Shown here one piece after another: positions 1 to 11,929 of a stretch of DNA of 11,929 bases. The notes under the pieces are model-generated. The model saw only the letters and a list, made by a program, of their open reading frames with translations, was not told where the DNA came from and made no database searches. The position numbers were made by a program, and so were the translations under genes. Numbering within the stretch: the stretch's first letter is position 1; each line of letters begins with the position of its first letter. Source of the DNA: a virus (lineage: Duplodnaviria; Heunggongvirae; Uroviricota; Caudoviricetes; Schitoviridae); IMG/VR virus record IMGVR_UViG_2974569618_000001, positions 1 through 11,929 of that record. One strand, written 5' to 3'.

Positions 1-21
1 AGGTAGATGATGGCGATAGTG

Positions 22-42
22 CCATACCATGCGTAAGCATGG
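22..42 (-). promoter_or_regulatory. Putative N4-type virion RNA polymerase (vRNAP) hairpin promoter firing leftward (+ strand is template)
   Basis: + strand reads CC-ATA-C-CATGC-GTAA-GCATG-G. N4 template-strand promoters as I recall them read CC-ATA-A-GTTGC-GAA-GCAAC (P1) and CC-AAA-A-GAAGC-GGA-GCTTC (P2). Spacing is the same: +1/+2 = CC (23/22), -8 G (31), -9 C (32), G..A loop closed by C-G. The loop is 4 nt instead of 3. Confidence 0.6.
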
Positions 43-43
43 G

Positions 44-119
44 GTGTACCTGTGTAGTGTGTATAAGAGTGTACCGGGGGGGTACTCTATATAAGATGGG
101 TGCTCCGCCCCAGTGTACC
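44..119 (+). repeat. Three direct copies of GTGTACC (44-50, 69-75, 113-119)
   Basis: Read directly from the sequence. Copies 2 and 3 extend to AGTGTACC; copy 2 supplies the left arm of the GTACC-GGGGG-GGTAC inverted repeat (71-85). Confidence 0.7.
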
Positions 120-386
120 CTGCATTGAGACTTACCTATCATCCGATTTCGTAAAAAATATGCAGAATATATTTATAGAAAACTTATCTCTAATGCTTGA
201 TAGAAAAGAAGCTGGTTTACGTCCAGCAACGGTTGAATCAACAAGGCTATAAGGTGCTACGTCAGGGGGTGTAGATGATTGGAGTTGTCCTTGTCTTCAA
301 CTGGTTCCGTTAACTCACGGTTTCCTTGAGGGCACGTCTATCAAAGCAATCAGGAATAGGGGGGTCTTTCCATTTCCATAAGGATA

Positions 387-415
387 TAGACATAAGACTT
401 AAAATACCCTATAAA
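387..415 (+). promoter_or_regulatory. Candidate sigma70-type late promoter
   Basis: TAGACA (387-392), 17-nt spacer, TATAAA (410-415), just upstream of the first RBS (AGGAG 432-436). N4 late genes use host sigma70 RNAP. The -10 lacks the conserved final T, so support is moderate. Confidence 0.4.
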
Positions 416-443
416 GGTGGACACAATCAACAGGAGATTTATG

Positions 444-761
444 ATGACTAATCGTGTAACCATTGAAGATGTACAGGCAGCTATCAAGTCAGAGACTTAC
501 ACCTTACTGCCTGATGGCAGAACCACTATCTGTCAGCTTACTCTGGACAATGATTTCACTGTCGATGGCAAGAGTGCTTGTGTTGCCAAAGAGAACTACG
601 ATGAAGCACTGGGTAACAAGTATGCCCGTGAGAATGCTGTCGAGAAAGTGTGGCAGTTCTTAGGCTTCCGTCTGGCAGATACACTGCACAAAGAGAAGCA
701 GGCCAATGATTTGGTGGCTGGCCTCAGTGATGAGGGTGACTGCGAAGGCTGCAAGATTTAA
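444..761 (+). CDS. N4 Gp49 / Sf6 gene 66 family protein (Phage_gp49_66-like), 105 aa
   Basis: Motif TTICQLTLDNDFTVDGKSACVAKENYDEALGNKYARENAVEKVWQFLGFRL fits the family pattern (C.L.L.NGF.V.G.SACV...NFD...G...A...A...IW.LEGY.L). RBS AGGAG at 432-436 favours ATG 444 (or 441) over GTG 417. Confidence 0.8.
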   Translation: MTNRVTIEDVQAAIKSETYTLLPDGRTTICQLTLDNDFTVDGKSACVAKENYDEALGNKYARENAVEKVWQFLGFRLADTLHKEKQANDLVAGLSDEGDCEGCKI

Positions 762-784
762 CCTTTCTTTTCTGGTTCAAATTC

Positions 785-810
785 AGGGGAGCTTAGTGCT
801 CCCTTTATTA
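785..810 (+). terminator. Rho-independent terminator-like hairpin
   Basis: GGGAGC (787-792), loop TTAGT, GCTCCC (798-803), then TTTATTA. The U-tract is short. Confidence 0.6.
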
Positions 811-824
811 TATGAGGTGAACGT

Positions 825-1511
825 ATGCTCTCTCTTGATCTGGTTCAGAAGGCTGTGCCTGCAAACCTCAAGAATGGTATTACCCAACAGTTGGTGGACA
901 ACATCAACAACATTAGCACTGACCCACTGACAGCACAGACTATCCGTGAGAACTTCATTTCTTATACGGGTGTGCTCAAGGATGGTAAGTTCAGCACAGA
1001 GCAGTACATGAATGCTGTGGCGTTTGTCAGCTACAAGCTGATGGGCCATACGAACCAAGAGGCTTATTTCAAGACCTTCCCTCAGCGTTATCAGGATATG
1101 GTGTCTGCCGGGAAGACCCAGAAAGAAATCTCTTCGTTTGTTTCTATCTATGCCAAAGGTAAGTTGGTGAACCTGATCATGGAACAGTCATTGGTGCCGA
1201 CATGGGTACTCAATGCTGACATTTTCCAGAAGGCCATCAACACTCAGGCTGAAATTATGAATGACGTTGGGGTGAACCCTCGTGACCGTGTGGCAGCAGC
1301 CAACTCCATTCTGACCCATCTGGCAAAACCAAAAGAGGTAGGGCCACTACTGAACATTGATATGCGCGAGCAGTCTGGTGTCAACGAACTTAGAGATTTG
1401 TTAGGGAAGCTGGCAACTAAACAGGTTGAGGCCATTGGTAATGGTGAGTCTGTTCAGGAGATTGCTGGTTCTCGTTTGTTCGAAGGAGAAAAGGTCGATG
1501 GCTCTAATTAA
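825..1511 (+). CDS. terS: N4 gp69-like protein, probable terminase small subunit, 228 aa
   Basis: RBS GAGGTG upstream; immediately precedes and overlaps terL by 14 nt; size and position match the conserved N4-like gene before terL. Function is inferred from synteny. Confidence 0.7.
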   Translation: MLSLDLVQKAVPANLKNGITQQLVDNINNISTDPLTAQTIRENFISYTGVLKDGKFSTEQYMNAVAFVSYKLMGHTNQEAYFKTFPQRYQDMVSAGKTQKEISSFVSIYAKGKLVNLIMEQSLVPTWVLNADIFQKAINTQAEIMNDVGVNPRDRVAAANSILTHLAKPKEVGPLLNIDMREQSGVNELRDLLGKLATKQVEAIGNGESVQEIAGSRLFEGEKVDGSN

Positions 1512-3096
1512 ACAAGACATTGATAAGTGGCTCGATGAGGTCAGTTACTCCTATCTGAATAGTGGTAGCTATGTTCCCTCAGAGTTCTCTCTTATCTTCA
1601 TGAACTTTATTAAGCTGGTGAACGGCGTAGAAGGTGAAAGTCATAAAACACCTCCTGTGCATCTCGCCATGCTTGATAAGGTTGTTGGCCCTTCGCAGTA
1701 TATCGCTAACTTATGTTTCCGTGGTGCAGCCAAAACCACTCTGTTCATGGAATACTTTGCGCCTTTTGTTGCAGTGTTTCACGGTTTACCGGGATTCGGT
1801 GAGATTGACGGTATGATCTACGTCTCTGACTCAATGGATAACGGTGTTAAGTCTGCTCGAAAGAACATTGAGTTCCGATATAACCAAAGTGAGTTCCTTC
1901 AAGAGTGGCTTCCTTATGCGAAGTTCACTGACAACTACATTGAGTTCAAGAACAAAGAAGGGAAGATGTTCGGCATCAAGATGTTTGGTGCTAAAACAGG
2001 TCTTCGTGGTACGAAGATCTTTGGTAAACGTCCTACTCTCTGTGTACTCGATGACTTAGTAAGTGATGATGACTCCAAATCTAAGGTATCAATGGAGGCC
2101 ATTAAGGATACTGTCTATAAAGGTGTGAACCACGCATTGGATCCAACGAAGCGTAAGGTCATCTTCAACGGTACTCCGTTTAACAAAGACGACATTCTCA
2201 TTGAGGCAGTTGAATCTGGTGCATGGGATGTGAACGTCTGGCCTGTCTGTGAGAAGTTCCCTTGCTCTCGTGAAGAGTTTCAGGGTGCATGGGAAGATCG
2301 TTTCTCATATGACTATGTAAGTGAGCAATACGACATGGCAGTGAAGACAGGTAAACTGTCTGCCTTCATGCAAGAACTGATGTTGCGTATTACCTCAGAG
2401 GAAGAACGTCTGGTTCAGGATTCTGAGATTCGGTGGTACTCACGGGCAACTCTTCTCAAGAACGCATCCACATTCAACTACTATATCACCACTGACTTTG
2501 CCACCAGCGGTAAGCAAAAGAGTGACTACTCGGTTATCTTTGTCTGGGCGTACAACGCTAATGGTGACTGGTTCTGGGTAGACGGCATCTGTGCTCGTCA
2601 GACGATGGACAAAAACATCGATGACCTGTTCAGGCTGACCCAGAAATATAAACCTGTCAGTGTGGGTATTGAAACTACGGGCCAGCAGAATGCGTTTATC
2701 CAATGGCTGCAACGAGAAATGATGGGGCGTAATGTCTGGTTCAACTTTGCCAGTTCAGCCAAATCAGGTGAGCCGGGTATCCGTCCAGTAGTGGATAAGC
2801 TGCAACGATTTAATGTCGTTGTTCCGTGGTTCAAAGCAGGTAAAATGTATTTCCCGGAAGAGATGAAAACCAGCAACATTATTGGGATGATCATCGAGCA
2901 AATCCGTCTGGCAACCCAGTCAGGTTTGAAAGGGAAAAACGATGACTGTATCGATGGCATTTCGATGCTTGGTTATCTCAATCCGTGGAAACCTTCTGAG
3001 TCTGCTCCTGTGTCTGAGCATGATCAGTCAGATGTGTACGAACTGTTTGAGGGGCCAGAACAAAACTCATCCGGGCTTTCCTCTTATATAGTGTGA
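1498..3096 (+). CDS. terL: Terminase large subunit (N4 gp68-like), 532 aa
   Basis: Walker A-like CFRGAAKTT, Walker B LCVLDDL, motif-III region FNGTPF, RNase H-like nuclease acids ITTDFATS..DYSV and NDDCIDGIS. Start moved from 1426 to ATG 1498 (AAGGAG RBS, overlap with terS end). Confidence 0.95.
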   Translation: MALIKQDIDKWLDEVSYSYLNSGSYVPSEFSLIFMNFIKLVNGVEGESHKTPPVHLAMLDKVVGPSQYIANLCFRGAAKTTLFMEYFAPFVAVFHGLPGFGEIDGMIYVSDSMDNGVKSARKNIEFRYNQSEFLQEWLPYAKFTDNYIEFKNKEGKMFGIKMFGAKTGLRGTKIFGKRPTLCVLDDLVSDDDSKSKVSMEAIKDTVYKGVNHALDPTKRKVIFNGTPFNKDDILIEAVESGAWDVNVWPVCEKFPCSREEFQGAWEDRFSYDYVSEQYDMAVKTGKLSAFMQELMLRITSEEERLVQDSEIRWYSRATLLKNASTFNYYITTDFATSGKQKSDYSVIFVWAYNANGDWFWVDGICARQTMDKNIDDLFRLTQKYKPVSVGIETTGQQNAFIQWLQREMMGRNVWFNFASSAKSGEPGIRPVVDKLQRFNVVVPWFKAGKMYFPEEMKTSNIIGMIIEQIRLATQSGLKGKNDDCIDGISMLGYLNPWKPSESAPVSEHDQSDVYELFEGPEQNSSGLSSYIV

Positions 3097-3103
3097 GGCA
3101 CAC

Positions 3104-3808
3104 ATGAATGTAGAGCAGTTATTTACCAATCTGTCTTACGGAGAACTGAGTAACCTCTCACTCTCTGCTGATGGTTCCGGTAGTATTCAGGAAGAACGAC
3201 AACCTCGGATCATTCTCTATGCAAATGAGGGTTTGCTCAGGTTGTACAGTCGGTTCCTCCTGCTTGAAAAAGATATTCTGATCGAGATGGTGGAGCACAT
3301 TACCAACTACCATTTCTTGAAGAAATTTACGGAATCTCATCACGATCCAGAGTCGGAACACTACCCGTACATCAAGGATCTGATCGGGGAACCATACGAA
3401 GAGGACATGCTGAAAATCTTGGCTGTGTATAACAGTCTTGGTCAGAAGGTTCCTTTAAACGATAATGAACGAATCGACTCAGTGTTTACTCCACGCGACA
3501 AGTTACTGCAAGTACCTCGTCCGATTGACGGAGCATCACTCAGCGTGTTGTATCAAGCGAAGCACCCAACGCTAACCATCGATGACTTGCAGCAGGAGAT
3601 CATTCTTCCTGTGGTTCTCGAAGGAGCCTTAACCGCTTATATCGCTTACAAGGTGTTCAGTCACATGAACACAGACGTTAGCTCTCAGAAAGCTCAAGAG
3701 CACATCCAAATCTTCAATAACATCTGTGATGAAGTCGAGGATCGTGACATGGTTGGTTCCAGTGTAGCCACTACAAACGCTCGTTTCGGTAAACGAGGAT
3801 GGGTATAA
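3104..3808 (+). CDS. N4 gp67-like virion structural protein (probable head-tail adaptor), 234 aa
   Basis: RBS GAGG. N-terminus LFTNLSYGELSNLSLS and ANEGLLRLYSRFLL match my recollection of N4 gp67 homologues; position directly after terL is the conserved gp67 slot. Confidence 0.8.
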   Translation: MNVEQLFTNLSYGELSNLSLSADGSGSIQEERQPRIILYANEGLLRLYSRFLLLEKDILIEMVEHITNYHFLKKFTESHHDPESEHYPYIKDLIGEPYEEDMLKILAVYNSLGQKVPLNDNERIDSVFTPRDKLLQVPRPIDGASLSVLYQAKHPTLTIDDLQQEIILPVVLEGALTAYIAYKVFSHMNTDVSSQKAQEHIQIFNNICDEVEDRDMVGSSVATTNARFGKRGWV

Positions 3809-3812
3809 AAAT

Positions 3813-4901
3813 ATGCGTACAGTAAATGATCCTTACGGTGGCTACTCGCCACTGGTAGACAAGATGATTGGCAATGCCTACGAAGTTGTTAAGCACGTAG
3901 CCATGAATCTGATGTACGTCCGTCATGTATCGGGCAATCTGGAACAAGTTTTTACGGTTGCAACGAACATTCAGGACGTGCTGACCAATGCTCGCAATAT
4001 GGATTACATCCAGAAAGTCTCTGCCATTGATGCAGAGGTTATTGCACTTGGTTCCAACATTAATGGTCTGGTGAATCTTGCCAATAACCTCGCTGCTCTG
4101 CTGCATCTGAACAGCAATATGGCTCCACTGATTTCACTGGAACCAAAGGCAGATGATCTGGTTAATCTGAACAGTCACCAGACTGAGTACATGGCTGTCT
4201 ATAACTCGCTGTCTGACATTAAGGCCGTTAGTGCTGACCTGACTGCTATCAACGCAATCTACGCCAACATCAATGACCTCGTGAAAGTCGGTAAAAATGC
4301 TGATGCTCTGGTTGAAGTGGCTAATGCTCTGCCAGCTATTACTGCCGTGCAGCAGAAACTGGATATTCTGGAAACCATTTACACCAATCTGGCCCAGATC
4401 ACCCCAGTTGGTCAGAATATCGAGAAGGTAATTGCTGTCTCTGATGACCTGACCAACATCAATGCAGTGAATGCAAAGCTGACAGAGATTGAAGCAGTGG
4501 CTCAGTCCATCGCTAATGTCAATTCTGTTGCTGGTTCTCTGACAAAGGTGAATCAGGTTGCTGACGACTTGGCTAACATCAACGCTGTAGCAGCAAAATT
4601 GCCTCAGCTTGATACCATTGCCAATAAAGTAGACAACCTGCAATCACAGAAAACTGTCACAGGTACTGCACCTGCTGTTTCAGCGTCAGTAAACGTGGCA
4701 ATGGGTACGGCAGCAACAACCGTGAAAGCAGTAAACGTGAAAGTAACAGGTACTGACGGGACAGTTTACTTCCCATCTGCATCGACTTTCAGTTATTCCC
4801 TTACTGGTTCCAATCTGGTTGTGACTTCTGCTGCATCTGCTCCAGCAAATATGGTCGGTGGTGCTATCGAAGCCCTGATCTCCTACACTCCGGCATCATA
4901 A
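3813..4901 (+). CDS. gp66-like tail fibre/appendage: virion anchor, long decad-repeat helical stalk, small beta-rich C-terminal domain, 362 aa
   Basis: N-terminal LVDKMIGNAYEVVKHVA resembles N4-like fibre anchors. Residues 21-280 show strict 10-residue periodicity. The last ~80 aa are Thr/Val/Ser/Ala-rich with beta-strand patterns. No enzymatic domain seen. Confidence 0.75.
   Translation: MRTVNDPYGGYSPLVDKMIGNAYEVVKHVAMNLMYVRHVSGNLEQVFTVATNIQDVLTNARNMDYIQKVSAIDAEVIALGSNINGLVNLANNLAALLHLNSNMAPLISLEPKADDLVNLNSHQTEYMAVYNSLSDIKAVSADLTAINAIYANINDLVKVGKNADALVEVANALPAITAVQQKLDILETIYTNLAQITPVGQNIEKVIAVSDDLTNINAVNAKLTEIEAVAQSIANVNSVAGSLTKVNQVADDLANINAVAAKLPQLDTIANKVDNLQSQKTVTGTAPAVSASVNVAMGTAATTVKAVNVKVTGTDGTVYFPSASTFSYSLTGSNLVVTSAASAPANMVGGAIEALISYTPAS
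3873..4652 (+). repeat. 26 tandem 10-aa repeats (consensus x-[N/D/K/S]-L-x-x-[I/V/L]-x-x-V-A)
   Basis: For example DDLTNINAVN/AKLTEIEAVA/QSIANVNSVA/GSLTKVNQVA/DDLANINAVA/AKLPQLDTIA; hydrophobic residues at positions 3, 6 and 9 with no register break. Confidence 0.85.
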
Positions 4902-4910
4902 GGAAAGGAA

Positions 4911-7094
4911 ATGAGGGATAAACCGTATCTGCCACAGCACTACTTCCAATTGGATGATCAGTGGTCAAGCCGTGTAATCCAAAACCACGGTGGGCAACCA
5001 GCGAAAAAAGTCTCGTTGGTTCCTGATGCTATTACTTTTGGGTCTGTAACGGCTGGACAGCTCTCAGTTGTCCAAAAAGCAACGTTAATGAACACGGGTT
5101 ACTTGCCTTTACTGGTTCGAAAAGTCCGTTTAGCTGGTGATTTTGTTGTGTCTCACAACCTGCCAATTAGCGGAGTAATCGAACCAAACGAAAGTATTGA
5201 GTTCCAGCTACAATTCGCACCTCAACGTGTGGGTATCACAACTGGTGGTCTGTATATCGACACCGATGCACACGGGGAAAACGAATATGTGGCGTTACTG
5301 GGTAACGGTCTGGCATCCGGTGTTGGTGTGGCTGTGCTCTCTACTACTTCACTGTCTTTTGGTAGTGTAAAAATCAACACTACCTCTGCTGTGAAACCCG
5401 TAGTTGTGACCAACTCAGGCACAGAAGACCTCACAATCAGTAAAATTGCAGTTACTGGTGAGTTTGCTGCTGCATTGAGTACCCCGGTTGTACTGGGTGC
5501 AGGTCAAAGTGCCACTATCAACGTGACATTTAGCCCAACCTCAGTGGGATCCAAGAACAGTACACTGACGATTACCCATGATGGTAACGGTGGTAACACT
5601 GTTTCCTTATCTGGTTCAGGTACGACAGGTACTGGTCTGCCAACTCTCTCTATCAGCAATGCTGTTATTGAGACTTCAATCGGATCAGCCAGTGTATCGG
5701 CCTCAACTCAGTCACTGTCATTTGCAGACACGACTGTTGGTAATAGCAGTGATGCTCAATCTGTCACCCTGACTAACTCAGGAGACGGATCAGCAAAGAT
5801 AGTTGACCTGTCATTCCCCACCAGCAACTTCAAGTTTGCATCTGGAAGTGCTGCGACAGGTACTGTCATTCCTGCTGGGGGTTCTGTCACAGTGAAATTG
5901 GTATTCTCTCCGGCTTCTGCCGGGGAGGTTACTGGCACACTGTTGATTTCTACCGATGCAGCAGTTGGCAATGAGTTTTCAATTGCTCTTGCTGGTTCTG
6001 CCATTGCTGCTCCAGTTGTGATGAAGCGACTGAGTACCAGTGGTACGAAATTTGTCGATGAAGACGGTAAAGAAGTACGTCTGAAATCGGTCAACTGGTT
6101 CGGTATGGAAGATGAGAACTACACTCCGCATGGAACATGGATCCGTCCGTGGAAAGCCATCATTGATGACATTGCTTCAATGGGCTTCAACTGTATTCGC
6201 CTTGCCTTTTCTGGTTCTGCGACAACAGCCGGAAGGACTCCACCAGCTTCTGCTATTAACAGCGAAGCAAATCCCGATTTGGTAGGTCTGACTTCGTTAG
6301 CCATTCTGGATAAATATGTCGATTACTGTACTCAGAAGGGTGTTTACATTGTTCTTGATCACCATCGCCGTACTGCTGGCTCCGGGGGTACTGACGGCTC
6401 TCCTGTTTCATCGGACTACACCTTAGCAATGTGGAAAGCATCATGGGCAGTCATGGCAAATCGCTATGGTAACAACCCAACTGTTGTGGGTGCAGACTTG
6501 CACAACGAACCACACCAACTGGATTGGCCTACATGGAACAGTTATGCCACCGAAGTGGGTAACGCTACTCTGGCTATTGCTCCTGATTGGATCATGTTTG
6601 TTCAGGGTGTTGGAACCAGTACAGATGGAACCAATAACTGGTGGGGTGGTGCTCTGAAAGATGTTGCCACGACTCCGGTTGTGCTGAACAAGGCTAATCG
6701 TCTGGCGTACTCGCCTCACGAATACGGTCAATCAGTGGGTTCACAGGATTGGCTTGCTACTGACAGCAAACCAGTCACCAACTACCCAAATAACCTGCCT
6801 GCTATCTGGGATAAGAACTGGGGCTTTATCGTTAAAAACGGAATTGCTCCTATCTGGATCGGTGAGTTTGGTGGTAAATTTGGGGTCGATGGTTCTGGTG
6901 CAGTTAACCAGCCAAATGGCATTGTTGAAAAACAGTGGGTACAGACTCTGGTCAGCTATATGAACACGAATAAAATGTCATTTGCTTACTGGTCTTATAA
7001 CCCTAACAGCACAGACACAGGTGGACTGATCCAAGATGATTGGGTAACTCATCAGACTGTCAAACTCAACTTACTGGCCCCTGCTCTGGCCTAA
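4911..7094 (+). CDS. Modular GH5 (subfamily 1-like) endoglucanase: N-terminal extension, 3 ASH/choice-of-anchor-D Ig-like domains, GH5 catalytic domain, 727 aa
   Basis: GH5 motifs RLKSVNWFGME, LDHHR, DLHNEPH (acid/base E533, nt 6507), YSPHEYGQSV, IWIGEFGG (nucleophile E652, nt 6864), WSYNPNSTDTGG parallel Acidothermus E1-type Cel5A. Three repeats of L.F..V..G..S....L.N.G...L.I......F......[LI]..G.S....V.F.P...G...G.L.I.......V.L.G.G at aa ~34-133, ~139-237, ~260-364. No signal peptide. RBS AAGGAAAGGA. Confidence 0.93.
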   Translation: MRDKPYLPQHYFQLDDQWSSRVIQNHGGQPAKKVSLVPDAITFGSVTAGQLSVVQKATLMNTGYLPLLVRKVRLAGDFVVSHNLPISGVIEPNESIEFQLQFAPQRVGITTGGLYIDTDAHGENEYVALLGNGLASGVGVAVLSTTSLSFGSVKINTTSAVKPVVVTNSGTEDLTISKIAVTGEFAAALSTPVVLGAGQSATINVTFSPTSVGSKNSTLTITHDGNGGNTVSLSGSGTTGTGLPTLSISNAVIETSIGSASVSASTQSLSFADTTVGNSSDAQSVTLTNSGDGSAKIVDLSFPTSNFKFASGSAATGTVIPAGGSVTVKLVFSPASAGEVTGTLLISTDAAVGNEFSIALAGSAIAAPVVMKRLSTSGTKFVDEDGKEVRLKSVNWFGMEDENYTPHGTWIRPWKAIIDDIASMGFNCIRLAFSGSATTAGRTPPASAINSEANPDLVGLTSLAILDKYVDYCTQKGVYIVLDHHRRTAGSGGTDGSPVSSDYTLAMWKASWAVMANRYGNNPTVVGADLHNEPHQLDWPTWNSYATEVGNATLAIAPDWIMFVQGVGTSTDGTNNWWGGALKDVATTPVVLNKANRLAYSPHEYGQSVGSQDWLATDSKPVTNYPNNLPAIWDKNWGFIVKNGIAPIWIGEFGGKFGVDGSGAVNQPNGIVEKQWVQTLVSYMNTNKMSFAYWSYNPNSTDTGGLIQDDWVTHQTVKLNLLAPALA

Positions 7095-7107
7095 TAAGGA
7101 AACTTAA

Positions 7108-9516
7108 ATGCGACAAGCACGTTTCACCGTAACGCTGTCACAAGCGTCTACGGATACCGTGACTGTCGATTGGAAAACTGTCGATGGATCGGCAGTTTCA
7201 CCAAGCGACTATACGGCAGCAAACGGTACTCTCACTTTTAAACCGGGTGAGACTACCAAAGATATTCTTGTAGCCGTTCGTGATTACGTCGAAGGGTCTA
7301 CTGATGAAGGTTTTACTGTTGAGTTAAGCAATGCATCGAATGCCAATCTTGATACCAAGACAGCAGGTTCCGCTGTCATTCCGGGTGATCCGGCTGCTCT
7401 GCCTTCTTATTTGGATCGTTTCAATACGGTCTATGAAGCAGTGCATAAAACCGACAACGGTTACTTCGGCCCACCATCGGGTAATGCTGCCCGTACCGTT
7501 CCGTACCACTGTATCGAAACTCTGATCTGCGAAGCACCAGACTGGGGTCATCAAACAGTATCGGAAACCGCTTCTTTCTATGTTGGTCTGGAAGCGTGGC
7601 ACGGTCTGCTGAATAACAAGTGGGATGGGTACAATCTGGCATGGTCAGTCATTGATCAGGTCTATGTGCCGAAAACTACGAACCAGCCAACGAAGGTATA
7701 TAAGCCAGCTAAACCTGCTGACTATACCCCAGAAGGTGATACACCATCTGCTTACCCAACTTTGGGTGATTCCACTGCTGCCGTGGGTATCGATCCACTG
7801 GCTGATGAACTGGAGTCCACCTACGGTAATAAGAGTGTATATCTCATGCACTGGATCATCGATGTTGATGGTGCATACGGTTTCCACAATGGTGATGGTT
7901 CCAAGTTCAACGTGTTCATCAACACGTACCAACGTGGTTTGCAGGAATCTGCATGGGAAACCATTCCTCAGCCTGAGTGGGAAGATTGGCAGTTTGGTAA
8001 TACCTATGGCTTCCTGCCTCTGTTTACTCAGGGTCTGCCTTTGTATCCAGCAGCAGAAAACGAATACGGTAAGCAATGGCGTTATACCTGTGCTCCCGAT
8101 GCAGAAGCTCGTGCAATTCAATGGGCATTCTGGGCGCAGAAATGGGCTAATGCATCTGGCAAAGCAGGATCAATTTCTGTTGCTACTGCCAATGCTAAAA
8201 AGATGGGTGACTATCTTCGTTATTGCCTGTTTGACAAGTATTTCCGTCAGATTGGCCCTAACCGTGCTCAGGGTTCCAACAACGATGATCCATACACAGC
8301 ATGTCACTACCTGATTTCATGGTATGTGTCATGGGGTGGTCAGGTTCCTACCTCTACGGGTGATGCTTACTGGGGATTCCGTGTTGGTTCCTCTGAGGCA
8401 CACTTTGGTTATCAGGCTCCTGATATTGCCTACTTCATGGCAAAAGAAGGCGGTGCATTTACACCTCTTTCTGGATCAGCATCTGATATTTGGCTGGGTT
8501 CTCTGTACCGTCAACTTGAGATGATCCGTTGGTTGCAGACCGAAGCTGGCCCAATTGCTGGTGGTGTGTCGAACTCATGGCATGGTCGTTATGAAACACC
8601 TAACGATGGTCGTGATAACTTCACGTTTTATGGTATGCATTATACCTATGCACCAGTCTGGCATGATCCACCGTCAAACAACTGGTTTGGTTTCCAAGCA
8701 TGGGGCTTAGGCCGTGTTGCTGACCTGTACAAAGAGGTAGCACTTAAAACTGATACTCTCAGCGTCAATGTTCGTAACATGTGTGGTGTGATTCTGGATC
8801 GCTTCCTTAACTGGATCCTCGACAATGTTAAAGTCGATGTGACAGCAGGAACCATGACACTGCCTGATACCCTGAACTGGACTTCACCGACTCAGGTTGC
8901 TGGTACTACCAACAGAGCCAACCTTGAAGGTGTGTATGAATACATTCCTTCTATGGCATGGGATGGAACAGGCGATACCACAACGTTCTGGAGCAACTCA
9001 AGTGTGCCAAACCCAACACTGAAATTCCGTGTTGTGGCTACAGGTAAAGACTTAGGCGTTGCTTCTTCATTGGCTCTTTTGATGCTGCATCACGCTGCTG
9101 CTAAACGAGACATGAATCAGTTTGACGCTAAACTCGGAGTAGGCAATCATACTGCTCGTGAGGTCTACCAGATGGCTAAAGATCTGGTTGACGTTATGTG
9201 GGGTCAGCATTGGGATGGTGTTGGTATCTGCCGTGAAGAGGGTCGTTCGGACTACAACCGTTATAACCAACAGTTGTATGTTCCACCGAACTATCAGGGA
9301 ACGATGCCTAACGGTGATCCAATCAATGCCAGTTCGACGTTTATTTCTATTCGTAGCTGGCAGAAAGCTGATCCAGATTGGCCTAAGATTCAGGCTTATC
9401 TCGATAGTCAGACGGAAAGCAGTATTCCTAAGTTCACATACCATCGTTTCTGGGGTCAATGTGAGTATGCCATGTGTTGTGGTGCTTTATACCACTACTT
9501 TAATGACATAAACTAA
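7108..9516 (+). CDS. GH48 cellulase (processive exo-/endo-glucanase family) with an N-terminal Calx-beta domain lacking its first strand, 802 aa
   Basis: GH48 motifs EAPDWGHQTVSE (catalytic acid E153, nt 7564), YQRGLQESAWETIPQP, QWRYTCAPDAEARAIQ (putative base D331, nt 8098), FDKYFRQIG, HYLISWYVSWGG, SSEAHFGYQ, WHDPPSNNWFGFQAW, FTYHRFWGQ. Residues 1-94 match Calx-beta (FTVTLS..STDTVTVDWKTVDGSA....DY....GTLTFKPGETTKDI.V.V.D......DEGFTVELSN). No signal peptide. RBS AAGGA. Confidence 0.95.
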   Translation: MRQARFTVTLSQASTDTVTVDWKTVDGSAVSPSDYTAANGTLTFKPGETTKDILVAVRDYVEGSTDEGFTVELSNASNANLDTKTAGSAVIPGDPAALPSYLDRFNTVYEAVHKTDNGYFGPPSGNAARTVPYHCIETLICEAPDWGHQTVSETASFYVGLEAWHGLLNNKWDGYNLAWSVIDQVYVPKTTNQPTKVYKPAKPADYTPEGDTPSAYPTLGDSTAAVGIDPLADELESTYGNKSVYLMHWIIDVDGAYGFHNGDGSKFNVFINTYQRGLQESAWETIPQPEWEDWQFGNTYGFLPLFTQGLPLYPAAENEYGKQWRYTCAPDAEARAIQWAFWAQKWANASGKAGSISVATANAKKMGDYLRYCLFDKYFRQIGPNRAQGSNNDDPYTACHYLISWYVSWGGQVPTSTGDAYWGFRVGSSEAHFGYQAPDIAYFMAKEGGAFTPLSGSASDIWLGSLYRQLEMIRWLQTEAGPIAGGVSNSWHGRYETPNDGRDNFTFYGMHYTYAPVWHDPPSNNWFGFQAWGLGRVADLYKEVALKTDTLSVNVRNMCGVILDRFLNWILDNVKVDVTAGTMTLPDTLNWTSPTQVAGTTNRANLEGVYEYIPSMAWDGTGDTTTFWSNSSVPNPTLKFRVVATGKDLGVASSLALLMLHHAAAKRDMNQFDAKLGVGNHTAREVYQMAKDLVDVMWGQHWDGVGICREEGRSDYNRYNQQLYVPPNYQGTMPNGDPINASSTFISIRSWQKADPDWPKIQAYLDSQTESSIPKFTYHRFWGQCEYAMCCGALYHYFNDIN

Positions 9517-9532
9517 GGCCGTTCCGACACAC

Positions 9533-9560
9533 AGGGGAGTCTGAATAGACTCCCTTTTTT
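9533..9560 (+). terminator. Strong Rho-independent terminator
   Basis: GGGAGTCT (9535-9542), loop GAAT, AGACTCCC (9547-9554), followed by TTTTTT (9555-9560). Confidence 0.9.
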
Positions 9561-9584
9561 ATTACCTGCGAGGAAGCAATAGAG

Positions 9585-9920
9585 ATGGCGGATAATATTG
9601 AAGTCCATGTGCAAATGGCCCGTCTTGAGGAACGCCTAAAGATTATTACTGAGGGTTTAGCTCAAGATAGAGAATCTCGAAAACAACAATATGAAGCGAC
9701 AGCAGAGATTACTAAGATCCTTGCTTCACTTGATAATCGTGTTGGTGTCGTAGAAAAGGGCTTCGCTGAGTCTGCCCCGACTATTGAAGAGTTCATTACC
9801 ATCAAACACCGTGTTGTTGGTGCTGGTCTTGCTGGGAAGTGGATCTGGGCGGGTGCAGGAGCAATCCTCACTTTCTTGTTTACGTTCCGAAAAGAGATTA
9901 TTGCATGGCTTTCAAAGTGA
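9585..9920 (+). CDS. Lysis-cassette membrane protein (holin or antiholin; N4 gp63-like position), 111 aa
   Basis: N-terminal amphipathic/coiled-coil region plus one C-terminal hydrophobic segment (VVGAGLAGKWIWAGAGAILTFLFTF) followed by RKE. First gene of the cassette. Holin versus antiholin cannot be decided from sequence. Confidence 0.6.
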   Translation: MADNIEVHVQMARLEERLKIITEGLAQDRESRKQQYEATAEITKILASLDNRVGVVEKGFAESAPTIEEFITIKHRVVGAGLAGKWIWAGAGAILTFLFTFRKEIIAWLSK

Positions 9921-10150
9921 TAGAAAATTGGAAACGAGCACACAAGTTCGGATCTATTTGGTGGGCAATTGCAGGTGTAATTGCAATGCTTCTGGAGATA
10001 TTCAATAACACTTGGTTCAGCTTACCAAAAGACATTCAGGATAAGATCCCTAATGCTCCTTTGGTAAGCCTGCTCATGTTTATTGCGATCATCATCTCCC
10101 GTGTAATCGTTTGGGTTCGCCCGGAGAAAGAAGACGATGGCTCTAAGTAA
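9905..10150 (+). CDS. Putative two-TM holin-family protein, 81 aa
   Basis: Start reassigned to ATG 9905 (overlaps previous gene by 16 nt). Basic-aromatic N-terminus VIENWKRAHKFGSIW is typical of a phage holin family; TM1 ~aa 15-33, TM2 ~aa 51-71; charged C-tail RPEKEDDGSK; directly precedes the endolysin. Confidence 0.7.
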   Translation: MAFKVIENWKRAHKFGSIWWAIAGVIAMLLEIFNNTWFSLPKDIQDKIPNAPLVSLLMFIAIIISRVIVWVRPEKEDDGSK

Positions 10151-10742
10151 AACAGCAAAAGTTGGTGGTGGTATTGGCTCAGTTGCTGCTGCCATTATTG
10201 CAGCAATTTTTGCAGTCGAAGGTGGGTACGTGAATGACCCAAAGGATCCGGGTGGTGAAACCAATCATGGTGTCACCAAAGTAGTTGCCCAACAAAATGG
10301 ATATACAGGGGCAATGAAGGATCTAACGCTTGATATGGCTCAGTCCATTTACTACAAAGACTACATTGAGAAACCGGGATTCGTTCCTCTTTTAACAGTC
10401 GCCCCAGTTGTGACACAGAAATTGGTAGATTCTGGCGTAAACACTGGGCCTGCTCGTCCTTCTCGTTGGTTCCAAGAGTCACTTAACTCTCTGAACCGGA
10501 ATGGCAAAGACTACCCTCAAATTAATGTTGATGGTAAAGTTGGCTCAGGAACAATTGCAGCCTACAAATCTCTGCAACGAGTACGTGGAAATGTTAAAGC
10601 CTGCGAACTGATGATCAAGCTACTTGATGCACAGCAAGCCAGCTACTACATGAGCCTGACTAACCTCAAGCAGTACACGGTTGGTTGGATTGATAACCGT
10701 ATTGGGAATATCCCAATCAGCCGTTGCCAAGAGGAAAAGTAA
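10137..10742 (+). CDS. SAR endolysin, GH108 N-acetylmuramidase (N4 gp61-like) with C-terminal peptidoglycan-binding region, 201 aa
   Basis: EGGYVNDPKDPGGETNHGVT is the GH108 signature (E28). A Gly/Ala-rich weakly hydrophobic segment (aa 9-27, VGGGIGSVAAAIIAAIFAV) after basic residues is a signal-arrest-release domain. VDGKVGSGT PG-binding-type motif. Confidence 0.92.
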   Translation: MALSKTAKVGGGIGSVAAAIIAAIFAVEGGYVNDPKDPGGETNHGVTKVVAQQNGYTGAMKDLTLDMAQSIYYKDYIEKPGFVPLLTVAPVVTQKLVDSGVNTGPARPSRWFQESLNSLNRNGKDYPQINVDGKVGSGTIAAYKSLQRVRGNVKACELMIKLLDAQQASYYMSLTNLKQYTVGWIDNRIGNIPISRCQEEK

Positions 10743-10746
10743 AATT

Positions 10747-11304
10747 ATGGGCCTGAGCAATTCTGTTAGAAACGCAATACTGGCCCTGTTCCTTCTTCTG
10801 GTTCTATTCGGTGAATACAAACTGTGGTCTGCTGGTGTAGACCACGGTTCTAATGCAGTCACCAAACTGTGGAACCAAGACAAAGAGAAACAGGCTAAAG
10901 CTCTGCAAGATGCCAAAGACAAAAATGCTTTGCTGATGGCAGATAACCGTTCACTCTCTGAGAAACTTACCCATGACCTTGCCAAACAAGAAACTGCTCA
11001 TCAAGTCGAGCTTGCTCGTGCTAAGTCTGAGTTTGATAACCGCTTGCTCCAGTCAGAAAAAAGAGCCAGCGTATATAAACGAATGTCCGAAGCTGGATCC
11101 ACTGAGTGTGGAAATCTCGCAAGCCATGCAGCCGAACTCGACAGATCTCTTGAACAGGGCAGACAATTGGTACGTGAACTCAGGGAAACTCTTAGATACC
11201 GTGACGAGCAACTGAGATCAGTAAGTGCTAAATTACTCGCTGACAGAAACCTACTAACTTCGGATGATGCAGATGGAAGACAAAATTCTACCTCGCACAA
11301 GTGA
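10747..11304 (+). CDS. Rz: i-spanin (Rz-like), 185 aa
   Basis: N-terminal TM (AILALFLLLVLFG), long periplasmic coiled-coil, one periplasmic Cys (C121), follows the endolysin and contains the o-spanin. Start ATG 10747 (GAGGA RBS) rather than TTG 10681. Confidence 0.88.
   Translation: MGLSNSVRNAILALFLLLVLFGEYKLWSAGVDHGSNAVTKLWNQDKEKQAKALQDAKDKNALLMADNRSLSEKLTHDLAKQETAHQVELARAKSEFDNRLLQSEKRASVYKRMSEAGSTECGNLASHAAELDRSLEQGRQLVRELRETLRYRDEQLRSVSAKLLADRNLLTSDDADGRQNSTSHK
10973..11215 (+). CDS. Rz1: o-spanin lipoprotein (Rz1-like), 80 aa, embedded in the +1 frame of Rz
   Basis: Signal peptide MTLPNKKLLIKSSLLVLSLSL, lipobox ITA|C25, Ser at +2 (outer-membrane sorting), Pro-containing periplasmic part with a second Cys (C38). 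Fully nested in the i-spanin gene as in lambda Rz/Rz1. Confidence 0.9.
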   Translation: MTLPNKKLLIKSSLLVLSLSLITACSSQKKEPAYINECPKLDPLSVEISQAMQPNSTDLLNRADNWYVNSGKLLDTVTSN

Positions 11305-11929
11305 AGAGGCTACTGAGAAAAAGTTAACTGACTGGAGTAACGAACCAACGTTACGTCAGTTGAAAGTTGACTTTGATCAGTCAAAGCCCGCACATGATGC
11401 TCAGGTTGGTCGTATTAAACACTGGCAGGATCTGCTCAATGTAACCGGAGCACAGAAGCCACCAAAGGTAAAAGGCCGTTCTTCGGTACAGCCAAAGTTG
11501 GTGAAGCGTCAGGCTGAATGGCGTTACTCAGCACTGACAGAACCTTTTCTTGGTTCCAACAAGCTGTTTAATGTCAGCCCGGTAACGTTTGAAGATGCTC
11601 CTGCTGCTGTTCAAAATGAACTCGTTCTGAACTGGCAGTTTCGCACCAAACTGAACCGTGTGAGTCTGATCGATACTTTCGTCCGAACCACAGTGGATGA
11701 AGGTACTTCTATTGCTCGTATTGGCTGGAAACGTGTCACTGTTAAAGTGAAAAAAGAAGTCCCTGTGTACTCGTATTATCAAATCGAGCAACAGGAACAA
11801 CTTCAACAGTTACAGCAAGCAATCGAACTGGAACAAGACAACCCACGAATGTTCCATGAGCAAGCACCACCTGAACTGGCTGCTGCACTGGAATATTACA
11901 AAGAATCTGGTGTTCCTGTTTATGCTGAA
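11273..11929 (+). CDS. Portal protein (N4 gp59-like), 5' part only; runs off the window
   Basis: Manual translation, open to the window end: MEDKILPRTSEEATEKKLTDWSNEPTLRQLKVDFDQSKPAHDAQVGRIKHWQDLLNVTGAQKPPKVKGRSSVQPKLVKRQAEWRYSALTEPFLGS... The LTDW.NEPT and GRSSVQPKL..QAEWRYSAL.EPFL motifs match N4-like portals. In-frame ATGs at 11264, 11267 and 11273; overlaps the Rz 3' end. Confidence 0.92.
   Translation, partial: MEDKILPRTSEEATEKKLTDWSNEPTLRQLKVDFDQSKPAHDAQVGRIKHWQDLLNVTGAQKPPKVKGRSSVQPKLVKRQAEWRYSALTEPFLGSNKLFNVSPVTFEDAPAAVQNELVLNWQFRTKLNRVSLIDTFVRTTVDEGTSIARIGWKRVTVKVKKEVPVYSYYQIEQQEQLQQLQQAIELEQDNPRMFHEQAPPELAAALEYYKESGVPVYAE

Follow-up and report, generated by a model that had tools for sequence, protein, structure and literature searches.

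The 11,929-nucleotide stretch of DNA analysed here (the window; positions 1 to 11,929 of the IMG/VR record IMGVR_UViG_2974569618_000001) carries two adjacent + strand genes for predicted cellulases of glycoside hydrolase (GH) families 5 and 48. We consider it probable, at roughly 0.75, that both enzymes are mounted on the phage tail, where they would replace gp65 and gp64 of phage N4, and that the virion binds and cuts the bcs-made cellulose of its host. The phage is almost certainly phiEaP-8, an N4-like Erwinia amylovora phage (Schitoviridae, Yonginvirus), and the window covers the structural and lysis genes at the right-hand end of its N4-like genome. Erwinia phage Fifi051 shows 98.7% nucleotide identity over 99% of the window length, and its authors name EaP-8 as the closest relative, both being placed in Schitoviridae, Erskinevirinae, Yonginvirus (PMC11984208).

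The GH5 protein combines a candidate N-terminal anchor peptide, three immunoglobulin (Ig)-like domains and a predicted endo-beta-1,4-glucanase, and in the GH48 protein a Calx-beta domain precedes a predicted processive cellulase. Judging by the orthologues in Erwinia phage vB_EamP-S6 (S6), the virion would most likely bind and cut the cellulose surrounding the host, and the endo/exo cooperation of the two enzymes would bring it to the cell surface. The cellulose may serve as the first receptor, as a barrier, or as both. The virion location, the substrate and the dependence on host cellulose are features that we infer from orthology and context.

The GH5 and GH48 proteins and their position

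The two genes and their parts are the following.

4911-7094, + strand: predicted GH5 tail endoglucanase, 727 residues (P0001), orthologous to S6 gp095 and placed where N4 has gp65 (PF00150, 8e-49; phrog_18474, 3e-167; phrog_5717 'tail protein', 1.7e-62)
4911-4988, + strand: candidate virion anchor, a conserved peptide at the N-terminus (residues 1-26) of the GH5 protein (conservation in the alignment; predicted local distance difference test, pLDDT, below 50 in the single-protein model)
5010-6005, + strand: three Ig-like domains (ASH / choice-of-anchor-D type), residues 34-134, 140-238 and 261-365 (Pfam HYDIN_VesB_CFA65-like_Ig, ASH and Cep192_D4)
6027-7085, + strand: GH5 catalytic domain, residues 373-725 (aligned to CelE2 8fc0 and Acidothermus E1 1vrx)
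7108-9516, + strand: predicted Calx-beta/GH48 cellulase, 802 residues (P0002), orthologous to S6 gp094 and placed where N4 has gp64 (PF02011 Glyco_hydro_48, 1.4e-210; Calx-beta, 7.7e-14)
7108-7383, + strand: N-terminal Calx-beta domain without strand A, residues 1-92, putative acceptor or anchor (Pfam match over residues 4-86, from profile position 24 of 119)
7390-9513, + strand: GH48 catalytic domain, residues 95-802 (alignment to the solved GH48 6d5d)

An earlier note on this DNA had placed a GH5 endoglucanase and a GH48 cellulase at 4911-9516, and had stated that both enzymes keep their catalytic carboxylates (E533, E652, E153 and D331), lack signal peptides and lie between a gp66-like gene and the lysis cassette. 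The present analysis agrees on every one of these points: the open reading frames (ORFs), at 4911-7094 and 7108-9516 on the + strand, are matched by Pfam profiles and solved structures, the carboxylates stand in motifs aligned to solved enzymes, neither N-terminus has a signal-peptide-like hydrophobic core, and the gene order, collinear with N4, assigns the pair to the slots of gp65 and gp64.

In the GH5 protein, the PF00150 Cellulase match spans residues 382-700 and the entire profile (positions 1-272 of 272). Among solved structures, CelE2 (8fc0, 6e-81) and the Acidothermus endocellulase E1 (1ece/1vrx, ~3e-76; 4.1e-76 for 1ece) match best. E533 (codon 6507-6509) is located in the NEP motif and E652 (codon 6864-6866) in the GEFG motif, both motifs being conserved in E1 and CelE2. 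In GH5 enzymes, the Glu of NEP acts as the acid/base and the Glu of GEFG as the nucleophile. The protein is a predicted endo-beta-1,4-glucanase. Its first 45 residues contain no signal-peptide-like hydrophobic core (the top Kyte-Doolittle 10-residue window is 1.47).

The AlphaFold2 model of the GH5 protein (m703b5fcf126d) has a mean pLDDT of 82.9 and contains three confident Ig domains. Only two stretches, residues 1-26 and 243-255, are of low confidence, and both rank among the segments that are conserved best across the phage homologues of the GH5 protein. In the N-terminal peptide, K4, P5, F12, D16, S19, S20 and R21 are invariant in the alignment (A1). The homologue search with residues 1-380 was dominated by cellular choice-of-anchor-D Ig-repeat proteins, mainly from Acidobacteria, and eight phage homologues were usable.

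In the GH48 protein, solved GH48 enzymes match at 1.8e-158 to 1.2e-121 and cover residues 93-797. The match extends over a full-length (alpha/alpha)6 GH48 domain, which places the protein in the family. According to the 6d5d alignment, E153 (codon 7564-7566) lies in 'VSE', aligned to 'TSE' of the solved enzymes, and D331 (codon 8098-8100) in 'APDA'. The protein is a predicted processive cellulase, and no signal-peptide-like hydrophobic core is present in its first 45 residues (top Kyte-Doolittle 10-residue window 0.54).

The N-terminal part of the GH5 protein has relatives among phage tail proteins. Residues 7-236 (anchor peptide, Ig1 and Ig2) are 38% identical (7e-50) to Ea92_83 of phage Ea9-2, a protein of 243 residues encoded in the same slot, and the first ~130 residues match 'tail fiber' proteins of Stenotrophomonas N4-like phages. 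Ea9-2 is an amylovoran-dependent N4-like phage. Ea92_83 (L011 7001-7732) is composed of the anchor peptide, Ig1 and Ig2, and ends just where the strand motif discussed below would begin. By stopping before the motif, it shows the cellulase part to be an add-on to a conserved base.

Both cellulases are syntenic orthologues of S6 proteins, with identities of 37% for GH5 (gp095) and 55.6% for GH48 (gp094), and the two phages belong to the same family, in line with the earlier suggestion that this phage may be a relative of S6. A commentary (PMC9544554) reports that S6 needs bacterial cellulose and that gp095 degrades carboxymethylcellulose, and describes gp094 as combining Calx-beta with GH48 and having E155 and D331; it also states that the S6 cellulase genes fill the N4 polymorphic region, while where they sit on the particle 'remains to be shown'. 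The cellulose need and the encoded cellulase, which the earlier note had mentioned, can be read there, and the paper that the note cited exists (Knecht et al. 2022, Environ Microbiol 24:3436, as listed in PMC12540986). A later paper refers to the cellulase activity of S6 virions (PMC13220884).

The genes of the window form one long run on the + strand, in the order TerS-like, TerL, gp67-like, gp66-like, GH5, GH48, gp63 homologue (111 residues), holin, GH108 endolysin, Rz and portal. This order is collinear with N4 gp69 to gp59, which reads gp69, gp68, gp67, gp66 (appendage), gp65 (sheath/receptor-binding), gp64 (tail assembly), gp63, holin, endolysin, Rz and portal. Since the flanking proteins are homologues of gp66 and gp63, the GH5 and GH48 genes fall exactly in the gp65 and gp64 slots; judging from their sequences, they occupy these slots but are not members of those families. 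The neighbouring features are listed below.

3104-3808, + strand: gp67-like virion structural/adaptor protein, 234 residues (phrog_2125 virion structural protein, 3.1e-80; Pfam SU10_adaptor, 5.4e-06; position of N4 gp67)
3813-4901, + strand: gp66-like appendage stub, 362 residues, without an enzymatic head (match to the solved N4 60 kDa protein, gp66, 9lc0/9yf4/9yf5, 5.6e-19)
9533-9556, + strand: terminator-like hairpin with a 10-bp stem and a 4-nt loop, followed by TTTTATT (consensus scan, pattern match only)
9585-9920, + strand: N4 gp63 homologue, 111 residues, with a hydrophobic C-terminal segment, the first lysis-side gene (53% identity to N4 gp63, 1e-37; phrog_5211, 3.9e-40)
9839-11304, + strand: lysis cassette with holin (9839-10150), GH108 endolysin (10137-10742) and Rz-like spanin (10681-11304) (PF05838, 5.8e-21, and PG_binding_3; phrog_315 and phrog_6197); the holin assignment is taken from the Fifi051 annotation

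The gp66-like protein matches solved N4 gp66 over residues 138-258 and lacks the C-terminal part of gp66 (362 vs 556 residues in N4). It also matches the N4 'appendage' by tblastn, and its N-terminus is shared with the exopolysaccharide (EPS) depolymerase tailspikes of Ea9-2 and Frozen (tblastn). The hairpin is located in the 68-nt gap 3' of the GH48 stop codon, before the gp63 and lysis genes, and thus groups the cellulases with the packaging and structural genes and not with the lysis cassette. This suggests that the two genes end the packaging/structural transcription unit. The gp63 homologue (9585-9920) is called a 'putative tail-length tape measure protein' in Fifi051, which looks like a misannotation.

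Compared with the Kuerle group of Yonginvirus, the module at 3813-9516 shows identities of ~37% for the gp66-like protein, 55% for GH5 and 74% for GH48, and the flanking terminase and portal genes show ~75% DNA identity. On these sequences, the cellulase module is a divergence hot spot within Yonginvirus, which is what one would expect of genes for host recognition. Fifi051 gp8 and the GH48 protein are 100% identical.

The cellulase pair in other phages

The Calx-GH48 gene is accompanied by a GH5 gene in at least five phage architectures. In the other non-fused contexts examined, GH5 immediately precedes Calx-GH48 or is separated from it by a single gene, within a tail or baseplate module. The pair is found in the Bcep22-like podoviruses L005-L007 (metagenomic, including a prophage-like region of Novosphingobium) and in the myovirus Hena1 (Vequintavirinae), where the order is baseplate wedge, GH5, GH48 and tail fibres. 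In the distant N4-like phage L015 it occupies the same slot with a GH48 that is only ~40% identical, in the 112-kb phage L014 it follows the tape-measure gene, and a further pair is present on a 346-kb contig.

The sole exception to the tail or baseplate placement is P0050 of L004 (6853-10833, 1326 residues), a natural fusion of GH5 (residues 14-343), GH48 (391 to ~1080) and an Ig domain (1092-1190). It is encoded between lysozyme-type lysis genes and the small terminase on a lambdoid-type metagenomic contig, and has no Calx-beta domain, N-terminal anchor or strand motif. Another variant, P0101 (1397 residues), joins Calx-beta/GH48 to a C-terminal GDSL/SGNH esterase (residues 837-1084), and could be a cellulase-plus-deacylase for modified cellulose.

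The earlier note regarded GH48 as rare in viruses. This is correct for cultured phages, as full-length GH48 was found in 15 of 50,697 deposited phage records, each of the 15 being an Erwinia phage, but not for metagenomes, in which more than 100 of the best 120 listed 90%-identity clusters share the Calx-beta plus GH48 layout, many on phage-sized contigs. The family as a whole is small (532 representatives at E <=0.001 among 1.84 billion 50%-identity clusters).

The GH48 tree was calculated with FastTree from 102 catalytic domains, with SH (Shimodaira-Hasegawa)-like support values and a midpoint root only. A branch whose SH-like support is 100% separates all 31 proteins with an N-terminal Calx-beta domain, together with two nested derivatives (the fused P0050, and P0243), from the other 69 representatives. 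The phage GH48 domains form one deep, old clade in this tree. They are diverse, down to 38% identity, and the first sequence-search matches outside the clade are actinomycete CBM2-GH48 proteins with ~40% identity. The phylogeny had been proposed earlier as a way to find the donor lineage; the 102-domain tree identifies neither such a lineage nor a recent donor. An origin by recent capture from a cellulolytic bacterium was rejected, because the Calx-type sequences lie together on the 100%-supported branch apart from the 69 others. The GH48 domains of Hena1-type myoviruses are nested among those of podoviruses, which points to module exchange between phage types.

Proposed docking of the GH48 protein

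The AlphaFold2 model of the GH48 protein (m8d0d84629d72, pLDDT 88.8) shows a Calx-beta domain of six strands. It superposes on NCX1 CBD1 (3gin) with a VIA-align Z of 13.0 and a root-mean-square deviation (rmsd) of 2.0 for 96 aligned residues. For 3ead and 3fq4 (CALX-CBD1 and the integrin beta4 Calx-beta domain) Z is 12.5 each and rmsd ~2.0, the aligned lengths across the three structures being 91-96 residues. The profile match, which begins at position 24, starts at the same profile point in all 46 aligned homologues. Taken with the six-strand model, this indicates that the Calx-beta fold (PF03160, NCX/integrin-beta4 type) is present but incomplete, with its first strand missing.

A segment that may provide this strand is found in the partner protein.

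5637-5696, + strand: putative donor strand 'LPTLSISNAVIETSIGSASV', residues 243-262, between Ig2 and Ig3 of the GH5 protein (conservation, low pLDDT and co-occurrence)

Within it, the segment 'LPTLSISNAVIE' resembles the first strand of Calx-beta domains. Residues 243-247 and 251-255 are the only internal stretches of the GH5 protein with pLDDT below 50 in the single-protein model, and P244 and I248 are invariant among the phage homologues. Donor-strand complementation is known from chaperone-usher systems. The docking is proposed on two grounds, namely that the Calx-beta domain of GH48 proteins is always without its first strand, and that a conserved motif, disordered in the single-protein model, accompanies such domains wherever they are present and is missing where they are missing. 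We put at even odds the proposal that the GH48 protein is hung on the GH5 protein by strand complementation, with residues 243-262 supplying the missing Calx-beta first strand.

An eight-residue motif pattern drawn from the first examples has 14 matches among the ORFs of the loci from which it was derived, where 0.47 would be expected. It is present in the GH5 tail proteins of the window phage, Fifi051, S6 (gp095), L005, L007 and Hena1 (gp204), and at the extreme C-terminus of ~115-124-residue proteins encoded beside a Calx-bearing protein in L006, in L007 and its L008 copy, in Hena1 (gp202), Parlo (gp74) and PEp14 (PEp14_00020). After the pattern had been fixed, three copies were found in the GH5 protein of L015, and one in L014, at the C-terminus of the protein encoded just upstream of GH5. 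The motif is absent from L004, whose fused GH5-GH48 protein has no Calx-beta domain; likewise, Ea9-2 lacks a Calx-type protein and its GH5-protein homologue ends just before the motif segment. In the control sets, there was 1 match (1.7 expected) in 112 cellular Ig-repeat proteins and none in 120 GH48 proteins. The one other match of the 14, in the Ea9-2 EPS depolymerase (residue 786 of 888), was taken as chance, as no Calx-beta partner is present in Ea9-2.

Two points weaken the case for docking. The motif pattern is post hoc, so that only L014, L015, L004 and the control sets are independent of it, and the phage GH5 homologues P0149 and P0221, while keeping a similar segment, miss the strict pattern.

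The three L015 copies (7971-9992) are tandem repeats of 'ELPTLSI(S/A)DGVLE' spaced ~17-20 residues apart, whereas the window phage has a single copy. In Hena1 gp202 (L009 11463-11816) and in L006 (9666-10004), a small protein of ~112-117 residues is made up of a strand-A-less Calx-beta domain and, C-terminal to it, a strand motif; such proteins could be chain links or could complete themselves in a circular manner.

The strand-A-less Calx-beta domain also heads the EPS depolymerase of PEp14, gp70 (sialidase-like) and gp73 of Parlo, and several unnamed tail-module proteins. The PEp14 depolymerase (L013 9446-12232) and Parlo gp70 (L012 10026-12344) both open with the domain in its GH48 type, and this sharing gives it the look of a general tail-enzyme anchor in Bcep22-like phages. 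In the broader form of the proposal, the GH5 and Calx-GH48 genes would be a mobile two-gene 'virion cellulase cassette' spread across at least five unrelated architectures and mounted by a general plug-and-socket, an N-terminal strand-A-less Calx-beta domain completed by a 'P-T-I-S-I-S-D/N-A-V-I'-type strand of a tail-resident protein. We regard the chances for and against this broader form as evenly balanced. If it is true, the occurrence of the same socket on EPS depolymerases and sialidase-like tail proteins would make the plug-and-socket a previously undescribed attachment mode for phage receptor-binding proteins, and a split Calx-beta docking, if real, would offer a simple modular handle for tail-enzyme engineering.

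Alternative explanations and comparison with known systems

The cellulose could be only a barrier, with the enzymes clearing the biofilm matrix and lipopolysaccharide (LPS) or an outer-membrane protein acting as the true and sufficient receptor; hosts without cellulose would then be infected at least as well as the wild type. LPS-altered E. amylovora mutants resist both S6 and phage M7, and the authors consider that both phages may also interact with LPS (PMC13101476); the commentary raises a second, protein receptor of S6 as a question, and the receptors of N4 are an exopolysaccharide first and NfrA second (PMC9544554). For S6, however, the same two sources present a bcs deletion strain as the phage-resistant control and call the phage cellulose dependent, the opposite of what a pure barrier predicts; PMC13101476 treats M7 as cellulose dependent too. 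Moreover, homologues of gp65 and gp64 were not found in the whole 75.9-kb phage genome, which leaves no gp65-type protein as an alternative receptor-binding protein, although an empty answer of that search proves little. We consider the barrier-only explanation unlikely.

The adjacency of the cellulase genes to the lysis cassette would also suit soluble late proteins, which are released at lysis to free the progeny or to destroy the receptor on debris and are not parts of the virion. The L004 fusion, with its place between lysis genes and the small terminase and its lack of Calx-beta domain and anchor, keeps this possibility alive at low probability. Both window cellulases start, however, with modules common to tail proteins, the non-fused pairs are encoded within tail or baseplate modules, the terminator-like hairpin separates GH48 from the lysis genes, and a citing paper attributes cellulase activity to S6 virions (PMC13220884), all of which makes a soluble role very unlikely.

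Scarcely probable at all is that the two are auxiliary metabolic genes, which would digest plant cellulose or environmental beta-glucans and feed the host or the phage niche, apart from adsorption. GH48 is classically an enzyme of cellulolytic bacteria. Soil-virome surveys list viral cellulase-family genes as candidate carbon-degradation functions (bioRxiv 10.1101/2024.12.20.629349). Against such a role stand the missing secretion signal, the tail-module placement with tail-anchor modules, and the separate phage GH48 clade tied to phage contexts. In addition, the host makes its own cellulose, which S6 needs according to PMC9544554 and PMC13101476.

The explanation that we favour, two tail-mounted cellulases acting on host cellulose, has its own difficulties. 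No BLASTP similarity was found between the GH5 N-terminus and N4 gp65 or between GH48 and N4 gp64 (best E-values 1.5 and 2.1), so the attachment to an N4-type tail is argued from other phages. Since LPS changes block S6, cellulose may not be the sole determinant of infection (PMC13101476), and the S6 results are quoted here second-hand, through a commentary and citing papers. Furthermore, the phiEaP-8 paper does not mention cellulases (PMC6200048). The Fifi051 paper does not mention them either (PMC11984208); in its annotation the pair is named 'hydrolase protein' and 'putative glycoside hydrolase protein'.

As the pair and its slot have already been published for S6, the novelty is lower than the earlier note implied, and the system is mostly of a known kind. 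New are the distribution of the cassette across phages, the deep GH48 clade and the proposed mounting by strand complementation. In the literature, the S6 commentary was all that searches turned up on phage GH48 or on Calx-beta in the role of a tailspike anchor.

For fire-blight biocontrol, the proposed tail cellulases lead to the prediction that the phages of Yonginvirus (phiEaP-8, Fifi051 and the Kuerle group) depend on cellulose as S6 does. Together with S6 they would form one cross-resistance group, in which the loss of bcs, pgm or related functions should affect all members, a point of importance for cocktail design. The breadth of the phage-specific Calx-GH48 clade, with GH5 as its constant partner, suggests that phages of hosts far outside Erwinia commonly meet bacterial cellulose as a receptor or barrier, and for this reason virome cellulase-family genes should not be taken as plant-carbon auxiliary genes by default. 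On the broader cassette proposal, many 'viral cellulases' of soil viromes would be adsorption devices against bacterial cellulose and not carbon-cycling genes.

Compared with N4, the window phage has its cellulase pair in the same position between gp66 and gp63, and in N4, too, this slot deals with a host exopolysaccharide that is the first receptor (PMC9544554). The difference is that N4 modifies or binds its glycan, whereas the window phage encodes two depolymerising cellulases.

The proposed docking is similar to that in the baseplate tripod of Tuc2009, the structure of which has been solved: a C-terminal beta-hairpin of BppU completes the beta-sheet of BppA domain 2 (PMC4742702). There, an accessory carbohydrate-binding protein hangs on the phage tail by one protein completing a beta-sandwich of another, and the GH48 protein would be mounted in a similar way. 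The folds and proteins of Tuc2009 are different, and its arrangement was solved experimentally, whereas ours is read from sequence and from models of separate chains.

Hena1 (gp204/gp203) and the Bcep22-like phages PEp14, Parlo, LASTA and L005-L007 contain the same module of the third Ig domain and GH5 (46-51% identity, residues 274-727). The same Calx-beta/GH48 protein is present in Hena1, pEp_SNUABM_01 and L005-L007, whereas PEp14 and Parlo have GH5 but no GH48. In all of these phages the strand motif is paired with a strand-A-less Calx-beta domain. They differ from the window phage in virion architecture and in the N-terminal anchor: Hena1 has a fusion to a baseplate wedge, and the Bcep22-like phages have an N-terminus of Gp77 type.

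The nearest relatives are those of Yonginvirus (Fifi051, Kuerle, Fifi067, Fifi287 and Fifi450), of which the Kuerle group has the same layout as the window. S6 (Schitoviridae, Waedenswilvirus) shares the family and the host species but belongs to another genus, and its gp66-like protein is shorter (317 vs 362 residues). Of the two phages, it is S6 that has experimental support. The gene order is the same, with gp097 (gp67-like), gp096 (gp66-like), gp095 (GH5), gp094 (Calx-beta and GH48), gp093 (small), holin and endolysin. The domain layouts and the catalytic residues match as well (E570/E689 and E155/D331 in S6 vs E533/E652 and E153/D331 here; PMC9544554), and S6 gp095 also carries a donor-like motif, 'LPALSVSDGVIK'.

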